A stretch of DNA of 17,950 nt from IMG/VR virus record IMGVR_UViG_2663763326_000011. One strand, written 5' to 3'. Shown here in pieces: positions 10,018-13,641 of the stretch. A program made the translations under genes and the position numbers. The notes beneath the pieces were generated by a model. That model saw nothing but the letters and a program-made list of their open reading frames with translations. It ran no database searches and was not told where the DNA came from. The number at the start of each line of letters is the position of its first letter. Position 1 is the first letter of the stretch. The DNA comes from a virus. Taxonomy: Duplodnaviria > Heunggongvirae > Uroviricota > Caudoviricetes.

Positions 10018-10191
10018 ATGGCTATTTCAGTAAAGCCAGTATTGATAAGTGAGAAGCAAATGGAAGCGATAAAGAAAATTCAGGAGGAGCAGCGTAAAAA
10101 ATCAGAGGTAGGAGTTGCGCCAACGATCCACGAAATTGCTCGGGGATTAATGGATAAGGCGCTGGCTTACACTTTAACTGGACGTGGGTAA
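10018..10191 (+). CDS. Small ribbon-helix-helix-like putative DNA-binding protein (57 aa); below the ORF-track cutoff
   Basis: ATG at 10018 preceded by AAGGGGG; translation MAISVKPVLISEKQMEAIKKIQEEQRKKSEVGVAPTIHEIARGLMDKALAYTLTGRG fits a beta-strand/helix/helix pattern. Stop 10189-10191 is 4 nt before the next ATG. Confidence 0.5.
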   Translation: MAISVKPVLISEKQMEAIKKIQEEQRKKSEVGVAPTIHEIARGLMDKALAYTLTGRG

Positions 10192-10195
10192 ATTT

Positions 10196-11539
10196 ATGGC
10201 TACGTGGCAACAGGGTATTAATTCTGGTGGTTTTCTGGCTGGCATCGGTACGCAAAATGAGAATGCGCCAAAGGCAAGCGACATTAACGCAACGCTTGGT
10301 CTGATCCGCGAAAACAATGAACTGGCTCGCTCAGGTGCAAATAACGTTGCTCTGACAGGTCTTCGTGGTCTGGCTGGAGTTGCTGATATTTATAAGCAGC
10401 AGCAACAGCAGGAGCGTAAAGCGGCATTCCAGAAAGGTTATGCAGATGCTTATGCGTCCGGTGACAGGGAGCAGATGCGTAATCTTATTACAGCATTCCC
10501 AGAAGAGTTTGAGGAAGTCCGTAAAGGGATGAGTTATGTCGATGATGCTCAAAGGGATGATTATGGCAATCTGGCGCTCAAAGCACAGGTAGCCTCATCG
10601 CTTGGTCCGGGCGCATTTGGCAGGTTCATGATAGATAATGAGCAGGAGATGCGTCGTTTAGGTATCCCTCCAGAAACTATTGCTGAAATGCAGGTTAATG
10701 ACCCGCAGGGCTTCCAGCATTTCGCAGGTAATCTGGCGCTGTTTTCTCTCGGTCATGAGAAGTATTTCGATATCAAAGATCAAATGGAAGGTCGTCGACT
10801 TGAGCAAGGGCGACTGGATGAAAGTATGCGTCAGGCTGACATGGAGAACGCGAGAGGATGGGCAAATATCCAGAACGCTCAACTAGACAGGGCTCAGCGA
10901 GCACAAATTCACTCAGATGAGATGGGATTGAAGCTAATGGAGCTGGGGCAAAAAGGTAAGCCGTCAGCAGACTTAATTAAGGGATTAAATTCTGACATTA
11001 CCAATTTTGGCAAAAATTATAACTCTGTCAGAGCGGCGGCAAACTCTCTGCAAGCCCTTAGCAAGGTAAATACTGGCGCTGCCCAACTTGGGATTATCTT
11101 CAACTACATGAAATCTCTTGACCCGCAGTCAGTCGTTCGTGAAGGCGAACAGGTTCAGGTAATGCGGTCTGATGGCATATGGGGACAAATCAAAGGATAC
11201 ATAGACCAGCTTAATGCTGGAAACGGCCTGTCGCAGGAGGCAAAGGATAACATTGTTAACGCCGCAAAAATCAACGCCAATGCTATGGGGCAGCAGTTTA
11301 ACCAGCAGGTTGACGAGTATCTCGATACATATGGAGAAACTATTCCTCAGGGGCTAAGAAAAAGCCTTGAAAGAAGGAAAGCGAAGCTATTTGACGATGT
11401 TTCCGGGCAGCCTACATCACAGGCTGGCACTGGACAGGCAAAAGCGGCAACCGGAGGAATATCAGAAGGCGCAACGGCAACCAACCCTAAAACTGGTCAG
11501 AAAATCATTTACAGGAACGGAAAATGGCAGCAAATGTAA
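10196..11539 (+). CDS. Large hypothetical protein (447 aa), Gln/Ala-rich, predicted helical/coiled-coil
   Basis: Long ORF (ATG 10196; alternative GTG 10184). Poly-Q stretch (QQQQQERK) and low-complexity helical segments; no nucleotide-binding or catalytic motif seen. Stop overlaps the start of the next gene. Confidence 0.7.
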   Translation: MATWQQGINSGGFLAGIGTQNENAPKASDINATLGLIRENNELARSGANNVALTGLRGLAGVADIYKQQQQQERKAAFQKGYADAYASGDREQMRNLITAFPEEFEEVRKGMSYVDDAQRDDYGNLALKAQVASSLGPGAFGRFMIDNEQEMRRLGIPPETIAEMQVNDPQGFQHFAGNLALFSLGHEKYFDIKDQMEGRRLEQGRLDESMRQADMENARGWANIQNAQLDRAQRAQIHSDEMGLKLMELGQKGKPSADLIKGLNSDITNFGKNYNSVRAAANSLQALSKVNTGAAQLGIIFNYMKSLDPQSVVREGEQVQVMRSDGIWGQIKGYIDQLNAGNGLSQEAKDNIVNAAKINANAMGQQFNQQVDEYLDTYGETIPQGLRKSLERRKAKLFDDVSGQPTSQAGTGQAKAATGGISEGATATNPKTGQKIIYRNGKWQQM

Positions 11540-13641
11540 TCTTACCGGAAGGTTTTGTGCTCGATGAACAACCTGATAACTCACAGTTTCCTGATAGTTC
11601 ACAGCTTCCTGATGGTTTTGTGCTTGATGCCCAACCAGAACAGCAGCAATCACCTTTGGTTTCACCAGAGGAAAATTCCAGACAGGAAAATGTTGTTAAT
11701 AATGCTAACGGTTTCGACCGTTTTATGTATGGCGTTCTCAGTGGATTGATGGATGTTGGTAAAGGTGTTGGCCTGTTTCAGGATATGACACCAGAAGAGC
11801 AAGCCGCAATTCAGTCTCTACAGCAGAAGTTAGCGGCAAAACCATCAACCGCACAAGATGTTGGTGAGTTCGTTGGACAAGCAGCGCCATTTGTTAGTGG
11901 TGGTGGGATTATTTCTCAGGTTCCCAAAGGGGCGGCAAGACTGGCTGCCGCCGCAGGGCTTGGTGCTGGAGAAGGGGCTATTGTAGCCAATGGAACAAAT
12001 AGCGATGTTGCTTCCGGCGCTGCTATTGGCGCTGTGGCTGGCCCTGTAGCCGAACTTGCTGGCCCTGCAATTAATAAAATAGCTGGGAAATTAACCAAGA
12101 AGAATGTTTCTTCGATTCCAGATATTGAGGGGATTACTCCTGCCGAAGAGAAAATTCGTAAGTTATCTGCACAAGGCAACCCAAATCTTGCCTCTTCGCT
12201 TGAAGGGCTAGATCTAAAACCTCAGAAAGAAATTGTTGAGGCTGCAAATAGGCTTCATGTTGATTCAGTTCTTCCTTCTCATTTATCAGGAAATGAGCAA
12301 TACCAAGCTGTAGAGCAAGCCCTAAAGTCACGGACAGGATCAGCGTTAAAAGCTCAAGAAGATAAAGCAATAAGCGAATTAGCCTCTAGTGCTGGCAAGA
12401 TAATCGATGATGTTGCTGGTGCGCCAGATGCGTTAGCTATGAGCGAAAAATATATTTATCAGATAAATAGTAGAATGGAAGCACTAAAAAACCGTAGTGA
12501 TCAGTTATATAAACGTGTTGATTCCGCTCTATCACCAAGAACAAAAGTCGAAGCAAATAACACAAGCACTATGCTGGAAAAAATCGCTGATGATTTAGGA
12601 GGGTGGGATAATCTTGACCCAATAGAAAAGCGAGTTTTTACAGCAATAAACCCCGGCCCAGATAGCATCCTAACGTATGCAAATTTAAACAGGCAAAGGC
12701 GTTTAGTTGGTGATGCCCTAAATAAAAAGCAGGGGCCATACAAAGATGCTGATAAAGAAGCGCTATCAAGACTATATGGAGCTTTAGCTGAAGACCAAAA
12801 ATCTGTCTTATCCAATACTGGATACTTGCGAGATTTCGAAGTCGCACAACGCCTTGTAGCTATGAGAAAAAACTTAGAAAGGCAAATGGTAAATCTTCGC
12901 GGGAAAACACTTAATGGGGATATAGCGTATAAAGTAACGAATTCTCTTCAATCTATGGCAAAAGGTGATGCGAGAGGGTTTCGTGAGATTATGCAAAATA
13001 CTCCATCAAGAACATTGCGAAGGGAGCTAGTAGGAACAGCATTAAGAGATATGCTTTCCTCTGGGAAGCGTGGGGCCGACTTTAATCCATCTGGCTTTGC
13101 AGATTGGTGGCAAAACTTGCAACACAGTGGACAGCTAAAGACTTTGGCTGAACATTTGCCAAAAGAAACAATGAGCGGACTATATGATGTATACAAAGTT
13201 GCCAGAGCAATAAAAAATGCTAAAGCGCATGAAATATCTACTGGTAAGCTGAATGAGTTTGTAAACAGATTTAATCGGGTAACAGCTCCATACGAACTAG
13301 CAGCAAAACACATTCAAAAAATAGGCACGATGGTAGGCGCTCATTTTGGATCGCTTGGAGCCATTGCTGGGGCTGATATTGGAGCAAGATTGGCGAGTAA
13401 AGCTCGATTAGCTGGTGGAGCAGGGGCGGCTGATGCTGCGGATAAATTAATTGCCTCGCCAGCCTTCCAGAGCGCAGTAAAAAATCTACACGGAAAAGCG
13501 CCTGGGCACATTGTTGATTCACGTATCAGGCGCTCCCCTCAATGGAAGAGTTTTTTTAACTCTCTTCCTGAACAGGAAAAACGGACCATCGCCAGACTGG
13601 GCATCATTACTTGGCTATCTAATGATCCAGATAATGACTAG
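11524..13641 (+). CDS. Large hypothetical protein (705 aa) with N-terminal tandem repeats and two Gly/Ala-rich amphipathic segments
   Basis: ATG 11524 overlaps the upstream gene by 16 nt. N-terminus has duplicated EGFVLDEQPD / DGFVLDAQPE and SQFPDS / SQLPDG units; Gly/Ala-rich zipper-like stretches sit near residues 120-180 and near the C-terminus; long helical middle. Confidence 0.7.
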   Translation: MAANVILPEGFVLDEQPDNSQFPDSSQLPDGFVLDAQPEQQQSPLVSPEENSRQENVVNNANGFDRFMYGVLSGLMDVGKGVGLFQDMTPEEQAAIQSLQQKLAAKPSTAQDVGEFVGQAAPFVSGGGIISQVPKGAARLAAAAGLGAGEGAIVANGTNSDVASGAAIGAVAGPVAELAGPAINKIAGKLTKKNVSSIPDIEGITPAEEKIRKLSAQGNPNLASSLEGLDLKPQKEIVEAANRLHVDSVLPSHLSGNEQYQAVEQALKSRTGSALKAQEDKAISELASSAGKIIDDVAGAPDALAMSEKYIYQINSRMEALKNRSDQLYKRVDSALSPRTKVEANNTSTMLEKIADDLGGWDNLDPIEKRVFTAINPGPDSILTYANLNRQRRLVGDALNKKQGPYKDADKEALSRLYGALAEDQKSVLSNTGYLRDFEVAQRLVAMRKNLERQMVNLRGKTLNGDIAYKVTNSLQSMAKGDARGFREIMQNTPSRTLRRELVGTALRDMLSSGKRGADFNPSGFADWWQNLQHSGQLKTLAEHLPKETMSGLYDVYKVARAIKNAKAHEISTGKLNEFVNRFNRVTAPYELAAKHIQKIGTMVGAHFGSLGAIAGADIGARLASKARLAGGAGAADAADKLIASPAFQSAVKNLHGKAPGHIVDSRIRRSPQWKSFFNSLPEQEKRTIARLGIITWLSNDPDND

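Follow-up and report, generated by a model that had tools for sequence, protein, structure and literature searches.

The ejection proteins gp20 and gp16 of phage P22 are packed in the virion, released on infection, and form a channel that carries the DNA across the cell envelope. In the usual account, classical phage-inducible chromosomal islands (PICIs) and the satellite P4 obtain their entire virion from a helper. The PICIs described so far reportedly have no phage structural genes except terS or capsid-remodelling genes (PMC10085698), and a backbone of integrase, alpA, and primase genes (int, alpA, and pri) has been published as that of the Gram-negative PICI (PMC6092414, PMC13612085). An island with this backbone was analysed in a DNA stretch of 17,950 nucleotides, the IMG/VR virus record IMGVR_UViG_2663763326_000011, which is referred to below at its full length as the window. 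Attention was centered on a three-gene operon downstream of the primase gene, encoding proteins of 57, 447, and 705 aa (Table 1). Both large proteins were identified as homologues of P22-type ejection proteins, and the operon is, on balance, probably a phage-derived DNA-ejection cassette of a PICI-like phage satellite, expressed at SOS and built into hijacked virions; the parts of this account that we infer are virion incorporation, SOS control, helper identity, and island mobility.

Several described systems share features with the locus. The ejection-protein (E-protein) module gp14-gp7-gp20-gp16 of the Lederbergvirus phages (P22, Sf6, HK620, Kapi1, and Sf101) is alike in the homology and order of gp20 and gp16, in their 16-nt overlap, in its mosaic alleles, and in the convergent membrane-protein gene at the position of sieA. 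The island cassette differs in lying outside a phage late operon, in lacking neighbouring genes for head, portal, terminase, tail, or lysis, and in having a leader gene and a promoter with a LexA-type box, whereas the phage module is served by a late promoter antiterminated by Q/gp23. Gram-negative PICIs such as EcCICFT073 have int, alpA, and pri, a size of about 17 kb, their own attachment site, and an accessory slot downstream of pri in common with the island, and genes for Ash, AntA/Bro, and PerC have been described in PICIs, too. Unlike them, the island family encodes virion DNA-delivery proteins, contrary to the common assertion that structural genes are missing from PICIs (PMC10085698). 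Capsid-forming PICIs (cf-PICIs) likewise encode part of the virion and obtain the rest from a helper; they encode capsid, portal, and terminase and borrow tails, whereas the islands would borrow capsid and tail and supply the channel proteins. Operon I, which serves packaging and interference in the pathogenicity islands found in Staphylococcus aureus (SaPIs), is LexA-repressed and is turned on together with the helper-inducing SOS response, according to Ubeda 2007 as cited in PMC6092414. It is a precedent for LexA control of a satellite morphogenesis operon, which is predicted here; the SaPI operon encodes TerS and capsid-size factors, the island operon ejection proteins.

In the open-access literature no account was found of a satellite or PICI with genes for ejection, injection, or tape measure proteins, although earlier publication is possible. 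The arrangement, a PICI-like family with a conserved and probably SOS-controlled leader followed by a swappable virion DNA-delivery cassette, is probably new.

Homology of the operon products to P22-type ejection proteins

The 447-aa protein matched PF16928 (Inj_translocase, 'DNA/protein translocase of phage P22 injectosome') over residues 12-219 with an E value of 1.3e-74 and a score of 251.1 bits against a gathering cut-off of 29.7, and it matched phrog_917 with 1.2e-133. When compared using tblastn with gp20 of Escherichia phage Kapi1, a Lederbergvirus, it was 74.7% identical over the full length (447 aa). These matches identify the protein, by its sequence, as a homologue of the P22 ejection protein gp20.

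The 705-aa protein has no Pfam domain but matched phrog_6704 (1.4e-174, residues 1-701) and phrog_770, 'DNA transfer protein' (1.2e-50). It aligned end to end with the gp16-slot proteins of P22-like phages, with 61.7% full-length identity to the 701-aa protein in this slot of a P22-like phage contig (L096; island and phage loci are designated below by L numbers), 41% identity to Kapi1_058, and 58.6% identity between its C-terminal 550 aa and Sf101_0013. BLASTP against P22 gp16 itself returned no match at E 1e-3, which was expected because gp16 types are mutually just 22-26% identical (PMC10883804), and membership of the gp16 type was assigned on the basis of the profile matches together with synteny. 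Genes 14, 7, 20, and 16 occur in this order in Kapi1, where the gp20 and gp16 genes also overlap by 16 nt. The profile and synteny evidence identifies the 705-aa protein as a gp16-type DNA-transfer (ejection) protein, and a protein labelled 'hypothetical' in hundreds of E. coli genomes can now be named. Judged by sequence, the operon proteins are new members of known families; a sequence search of the PDB found a solved relative for none of the three.

A reading of the window made earlier, without database searches (the original prediction), had placed three tightly coupled genes here, and this layout was confirmed. The first stop codon (10189-10191) lies 4 nt before ATG 10196, and genes 2 and 3 overlap by 16 nt. 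The open reading frame (ORF) listing puts the start of the second ORF at GTG 10184; ATG 10196 was preferred as the start of the gene, as annotated in RefSeq and as indicated by similarity to phage gp20 ('MATWQQG'). The large products had been called Gln/Ala/Gly-rich, which was overstated for Gln (the 705-aa protein has A 12.8%, G 8.7%, and Q 5.4%). They had also been said to lack NTPase and nuclease motifs, and no such domain was found in the operon proteins using Pfam. The GFVLD repeats reported in the 705-aa protein are present at residues 10-14 and 31-35, as are the Gly/Ala-rich stretches, at about residues 113-185 and 605-645, which resemble virion-internal proteins as had been proposed. 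Both features are also kept in the phage homologues (Kapi1 and L096) and are thus traits of the family and no oddity of the window protein. The satellite context had been correctly recognised; the island has an integrase, AlpA, and a primase and no capsid or packaging genes. The view that both large proteins are of unknown function and form an uncharacterised system is refuted by their confident homology to gp20 and gp16, and the evidence that the prediction had itself named as decisive against it is what was found: homology to virion proteins, with the gene pair and the same overlap conserved in Lederbergvirus phages. As an interpretation, the original prediction is partly supported overall.

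Leader, promoter, and cargo in the island family

Similarity to phage DNA starts about 10 nt 5' of the gp20 ATG and continues in mosaic segments of up to 88-93% nucleotide identity, and no phage DNA counterpart was found for the promoter and the 57-aa gene. In the island of E. coli 042, phage similarity starts exactly at the gene after the leader. Together with the phage-contig homologue of the membrane protein described below, these comparisons identify the gp20/gp16 cassette and the convergent membrane-protein gene as a block imported from Lederbergvirus-type phages and placed behind an island-specific leader. Sister islands (at yicC or thrW) pair the same leader with other allele sets, namely a second gp20/gp16 type in L004 and L085 and a full set of gp14 (DUF2824), gp7 (PF25688), gp20, and gp16 in L005, L006, L007, L087, L093, and L094; gp14 and gp7 are absent from the window copy, in which it differs from the Lederbergvirus module as well. 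Starting at about 10840, the window and the four-gene cassette of L093 share at least 98% DNA identity, and upstream of this coordinate they diverge. This switch indicates that the two-gene form arose by recombination in the conserved N-terminal part of gp20, the C-terminal part of which co-varies with the gp16 type.

The convergent gene named in the original prediction was confirmed on the minus strand, starting 19 nt beyond the operon. It occupies the position equivalent to that of P22 sieA, which faces gene 16 in convergent orientation at a distance of 22 nt downstream, and by its hydropathy profile its 131-aa product is, like SieA, a small multi-pass membrane protein. Similarity to SieA was detected neither by BLASTP (E 2.8) nor by PHROG (phrog_7745), and tblastn against the phage collection gave no match. 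A database search returned just 14 close relatives of the 131-aa protein, one of them in a P22-like contig. A homologue (P0053, 47% identity) fills the corresponding slot of such a phage contig, with gp16 on one side and the Arc/Mnt/Ant region on the other. Only the variant in L005 (the thrW island of E. coli 789) is SieA-like: its convergent gene after gp16 (15857-16471) encodes a 204-aa membrane protein with an RYPGEA motif and a weak but specific similarity to SieA (28.7% identity over 108 aa, E 1e-6; phrog_7745 4.6e-4). With this gene, the satellite may carry a superinfection-exclusion function.

The 57-aa leader protein had no match in Pfam, PHROG, NCBIfam, or PADLOC. Its 45 homologues are all from Enterobacterales and all annotated as 'hypothetical', and the family core reads VKPVLLS..Q.EA...IQE.ER.KS..GVAPTIH.IARGLMDKAL. 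Structure prediction with database homologues (AlphaFold2, AF2) gave a monomer model with an extended N-terminus (residues 1-11) and helices at 12-28 and 37-54, at a predicted local distance difference test (pLDDT) score of 75.7. This topology is compatible with the original designation of the protein as ribbon-helix-helix (RHH)-like, for which profile and structure comparisons provided no support: a Pfam search with 21 members of the leader family returned no RHH match even at E 1, noise alone, and Foldseek found no significant match of the model in the PDB. On the modelled topology, we hypothesize that the leader protein is an RHH regulator. Among 5,426 complete E. coli genomes, 499 (about 9%) carried the leader.

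Upstream of the leader, islands of different genera share one architecture, which consists of two boxes of the GTTTCAT-N4-TGCAA type about 31 nt apart, a TATAAT hexamer, and a palindrome. In islands of many genera, the spacing between a box of the box 1 type and the leader gene is unchanged. A sigma-70 scan in which both hexamers were required found no promoter at the TATAAT, and the two boxes stand at the expected place of the -35 element, which suggests a factor-dependent promoter. The palindrome is a LexA-type box. Its CTGT-N8-ACAG motif, which has an A/T-rich spacer, is unique in the window, and on a matrix built from known E. coli SOS boxes the 20-mer at 9985-10004 scored 19.0 bits, with training boxes at 14.8-26.6 bits and the next-best site of the window at 13.2 bits. 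A box of at least 14.7 bits was present at the same position in 18 of the 34 family promoters examined. LexA would thus repress the operon, and a factor on the two boxes, perhaps the leader protein, would modulate it. The terminator that had been predicted upstream of the operon is real; it folds as RNA into a 9-bp GC-rich stem followed by U7, was also reported by a consensus scan, and closes the upstream unit (the primase gene and a 153-aa ORF).

To define the cargo behind the leader, one genome per species was scanned with the island primase, which yielded 77 loci in Enterobacterales, and a homologue of the 57-aa gene was found downstream of the primase in 31 of them. Cargo classes were assigned from cluster representatives of the genes after the leader and from one batch scan. 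Directly behind the leader, a tape measure protein, usually after a partner of about 108 aa (phrog_19131), is encoded at 12 loci, a tail or injection protein with an SLT transglycosylase domain at 6, podovirus-type internal virion proteins at 5, the P22-type E-protein set at 2, and a baseplate hub at 1, leaving 5 loci with other or unrecognised cargo, including terS-like genes. As classified by sequence, the slot in 26 of the 31 leader loci is therefore occupied by proteins that leave the virion for the passage of DNA across the envelope or that stand at the tail tip. One island tape measure protein was 43-57% identical to those of siphophages of Klebsiella, Enterobacter, and Hafnia, and one of the podovirus-type loci carries a four-gene set. 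Virion families of the tape-measure and transglycosylase kind dominated the batch scan, in which 99 ORFs downstream of the leader, each 100 aa or longer, were covered; capsid, portal, large-terminase, tube, and sheath families were absent from the 25 most frequent.

The protein of about 108 aa lies between the leader and the tape measure gene in L010, L011, L024, L026, L027, L030, L032, L045, L048, and L056; by analogy, it may be a counterpart of a tail assembly chaperone, with a role like that of gp14 in the P22-type cassette. The yicC-site island of E. coli PK6 (L086, 7093-7937), which has a P4-family primase, carries the leader followed by a gene for a 223-aa 'peptidase M41 family' protein, and L067 carries a related protease-like gene plus terS. 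The cargo of these two islands indicates that the slot is not exclusive to delivery proteins.

The cassette is widespread and maintained. In the index of an assembly collection, 2,790 blocks contain the 705-aa sequence without any change, and among the matches listed for this protein all eight distinct contexts were islands, on two primase types. The ratio of nonsynonymous to synonymous substitution rates (dN/dS) was 0.16-0.29 for gp20 and gp16 in four island-versus-island comparisons, 0.07 for gp7 and gp14 in two such comparisons, 0.23 for gp20 of the window against gp20 of phage Kapi1, and about 0.10-0.12 for the leader gene. The completeness of sets that include assembly chaperones (gp14), together with the intact SLT domains, speaks for a retained delivery function. 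Disrupted cassettes were observed in NZ_CP135709, NZ_LR883050, NZ_CM180508, NZ_CM180507, L090, and L087, and the cassette is being lost in some lineages.

Proposed role and competing explanations

Hijacking of helper virions, one of the functions that had been suggested for the operon, is the best-supported reading of these data, though an inferred one. LexA would keep the operon off until DNA damage induces a resident P22-like helper prophage, at which point the operon would be transcribed. Island gp20 and gp16 would be assembled into helper procapsids, with gp7 and gp14 taken from the helper, and particles carrying the island would inject their DNA through a channel specified by the satellite. 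The most likely benefit would be entry into cells whose resident P22-like prophage expresses a SieA-type exclusion, and mixed, less infectious helper virions would be a possible side effect. The 57-aa protein would probably bind the two upstream boxes as an autoregulator.

Published work on P22 bears on each step of virion assembly and entry: gp7, gp20, and gp16 are packaged in the virion and each is required for DNA injection; P22 virions incorporate foreign E-proteins; gp20 and gp16 function only as a matched pair, gp7 being conserved and interchangeable; inner-membrane SieA blocks injection via gp20 and gp16; and SieA-escape mutations map to gp20 and gp16, while the HK620 E-protein set placed in P22 overcomes SieA (PMC10883804). 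Since the window cassette consists of exactly the matched gp20/gp16 pair without the interchangeable parts, a satellite-specified channel is favoured. HK97 gp15 and TP-J34 Ltp are mentioned in the same paper as analogous exclusion systems of other phage types (PMC10883804), and tape measure and internal virion proteins in the same slot fit the model because they are the targets of such systems.

Extended to the whole family, the model would describe satellites with a swappable DNA-delivery slot whose content depends on the helper type (P22 E-proteins, siphovirus tape measure proteins, or podovirus internal proteins), expressed from an SOS-type promoter and refitting hijacked virions with the satellite's own injection channel. 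We put this generalisation forward tentatively, as a possibility with slightly less than an even chance of being right. If it is true, the particles could enter cells that have superinfection exclusion or that lack the inner-membrane entry factor of the helper, and the islands would represent a third satellite strategy beside capsid remodelling and capsid formation, with a different division of labour in which the satellite supplies the ejected channel proteins only. Two fields would be linked, because the exclusion systems SieA, HK97 gp15, and Ltp act on exactly these delivery proteins and the cells a satellite has to enter are those with a resident helper prophage, which are the cells expressing such exclusion. 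The model is testable with the existing genetics of P22, HK620, and Kapi1, and it bears on the engineering of transducing particles with altered entry.

Several observations weigh against the proposed role. We know of nothing that would steer island E-proteins into satellite rather than helper particles. No terS gene was found in the island, a search of the window that allowed up to 3 mismatches found no P22 pac site, and the window primase is frameshifted. As to the cargo, 5 of the 31 leader loci and E. coli PK6 carry terS, the protein annotated 'peptidase M41', or unknowns, and decay in some E. coli copies takes the form of IS1 insertions, a truncated gp20, or a frameshifted gp16. As to regulation, 16 of the 34 family promoters score below 14.7 bits, 14 of these have a 15-mer variant in which the left half-site is preserved but which does not fit canonical LexA spacing, and the RHH assignment of the leader protein lacks Pfam and Foldseek support.

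Most of the data are also compatible with the use of the operon as an interference weapon, in which island gp20 and gp16 would co-assemble with or displace those of the helper, and the mismatched pairs would result in non-infectious helper progeny, less competition, and protected neighbours. Virions with mismatched gp20 and gp16 assemble but fail to function (PMC10883804), PICIs commonly interfere with helpers and are known to carry immunity genes in a slot downstream of pri (PMC11364771), and SOS-timed expression would coincide with helper induction. However, one subunit is enough for a poison, whereas matched pairs or complete sets are retained in the islands under purifying selection, along with chaperones and intact transglycosylase domains, and the island's own particles would be poisoned too. 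Interference may coexist with virion refitting, but as the explanation of the operon it is less favoured and we consider it unlikely. The cassette could also act in the uninduced cell if E-protein homologues and the membrane protein in the envelope blocked formation of a P22-like channel, as in superinfection exclusion. The convergent gene adjoining in the sieA slot, the SieA-like gene in L005, and the association of gp16 with membranes, for which PMC10883804 cites earlier work, would fit such a defence. It is nevertheless hard to reconcile with a LexA-type box over the transcription start, which implies that the operon is off in unstressed cells, and it leaves the tape measure proteins and complete internal-protein sets of the same slot unexplained; moreover, the membrane protein is transcribed separately and could exclude phages alone. 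PADLOC gave no match among ten island proteins, and with a promoter that looks repressed outside SOS the membrane-acting defence effector of the original prediction is likewise unsupported. A defensive role is thus quite improbable.

If the cassette were an inert relic, a piece of P22-like prophage that entered the island by recombination and has no function, this would account for its mosaic segments with up to 88-93% nucleotide identity to phages, for the copies broken by IS1 or frameshifts, and for the broken primase of the window. Such an origin does not explain why the junctions fall exactly at gene boundaries behind a conserved leader, why functionally analogous cassettes were acquired independently in many genera, why dN/dS between island copies is 0.07-0.29, or why the exact 705-aa protein is very widespread and intact, and we hold it to be no less improbable than defence. 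The remaining reading, that of a novel low-complexity pore-forming or defence-effector system unrelated to virion proteins, can draw on Gly/Ala-rich amphipathic segments that are real and on a 705-aa protein without a Pfam match or solved structure. It is hardly tenable in view of the Lederbergvirus synteny and of the strong matches that PHROG and tblastn gave with phage ejection proteins, and the pore-forming effector was rejected as contradicted by homology.

Island backbone, ends, and minor observations

E. coli EcPF7 has, between yicC and yicG, a stretch to which the window is identical except for two indels, and the window spans from the integrase start codon through into yicG. The element itself measures about 17 kb, as judged by matching sequences at both ends. 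The coordinates of its features are listed in Table 1.

Table 1. Features of the island in the window, with their positions and the basis of each assignment
Feature	Position	Strand	Basis
Tyrosine integrase, left island end	1-1269	+	Pfam Arm-DNA-bind_3, Phage_int_M, Phage_integrase; RefSeq context
AlpA-type helix-turn-helix (HTH) regulator	2387-2605	+	HTH annotation; sister-island counterpart matches PF05930 Phage_AlpA
Zn-ribbon/TOPRIM/DUF927 primase, split by 1-nt deletion	6391-9146	+	Pfam
Intrinsic terminator	9884-9926	+	RNA fold, dG -14.8 kcal/mol, z -3.5; also in consensus scan
Promoter box 1, GTTTCATATTTTGCAA	9932-9947	+	Exact match to GTTTCAT-N4-TGCAA
Promoter box 2, GTTTCATAAAACGCAA	9963-9978	-	One mismatch to box pattern; abuts -10; position conserved in family
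Perfect -10 TATAAT, no recognisable -35	9979-9984	+	Read from sequence; conserved in family alignment
LexA-type SOS box, GACTGTTGTTTTATACAGTT	9985-10004	+	CTGT-N8-ACAG at 9987-10002; covers expected transcription start
57-aa leader gene	10018-10191	+	ORF listing, sequence
447-aa gp20-type gene	10196-11539	+	ORF listing, RefSeq start, homology
705-aa gp16-type gene	11524-13641	+	ORF listing
131-aa membrane protein, about 4 predicted transmembrane segments	13661-14056	-	Hydropathy profile
Candidate attR core, GTGTACATAA, right island end	16978-16987	+	Repeat comparison

On the 5' side of the operon the island encodes the integrase, a 216-aa ORF, the AlpA-type HTH regulator, an AntA/AntB-family protein, DUF4222, Ash, and Icd-like proteins, small ORFs, the primase, and the 153-aa ORF. 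Downstream of the operon there are three minus-strand ORFs, PerC, and a 254-aa ORF. No capsid, portal, terminase, tail, or lysis genes were detected among the island proteins using Pfam and PHROG. With regard to the features that characterize Gram-negative PICIs, the order of integrase, AlpA, and primase is present, as is a discrete element with its own attachment (att) site; the absence of phage structural genes does not apply, since the island encodes the virion proteins gp20 and gp16. Classification as a P4-like satellite was rejected because sid, psu, and delta are missing, and a prophage remnant was rejected on account of the missing head and tail genes, the precise junctions, and the purifying selection.

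The primase gene of the window reads GGG at about 7236-7239, compared with GGGG in NZ_CP054232, and this 1-nt deletion splits the 918-aa primase into ORFs 6391-7245 and 7281-9146. The deletion may be an inactivating frameshift or a homopolymer sequencing error, and the window copy may be immobile.

The ends of the island were located by a 10-mer comparison of both junctions, after a long-seed repeat search had found no att site. The sequence GTGTACATAA occurs as a 10-12-mer at both island ends in L001 and L006, and it is found once in the window, where 0.01 occurrences are expected by chance. Two tandem cores on the left (5902-5925) and one on the right (22960-22970) were found in L001, and E. 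coli 042 is likewise arranged. The sequence is likely the att core of yicC-site islands. The window island lies at yicC-yicG and sister islands at thrW; no tRNA genes were found in the window.

Repeats were noted at other positions of the island. A 23-nt direct repeat, ATTTCGTGACCAGTACGCGCGCG, is present in three copies of 78-100% identity at about 14203-14225, 14487-14509, and 16870-16892 of the window (20186, 20470, and 22853 in L001), located between the minus-strand genes and near the right island end. A 22-nt repeat, AGTTTT(C/T)(G/A)GAGTCCATAAAAAA, lies at about 4370-4391, inside the Ash gene, and at 9842-9863, just 5' of the terminator that precedes the operon. The 153-aa ORF (9376-9837), in the interval between primase and terminator, had no family match and occurs in some sister islands only; a homologue with 53% identity was found in the Leclercia locus L036.

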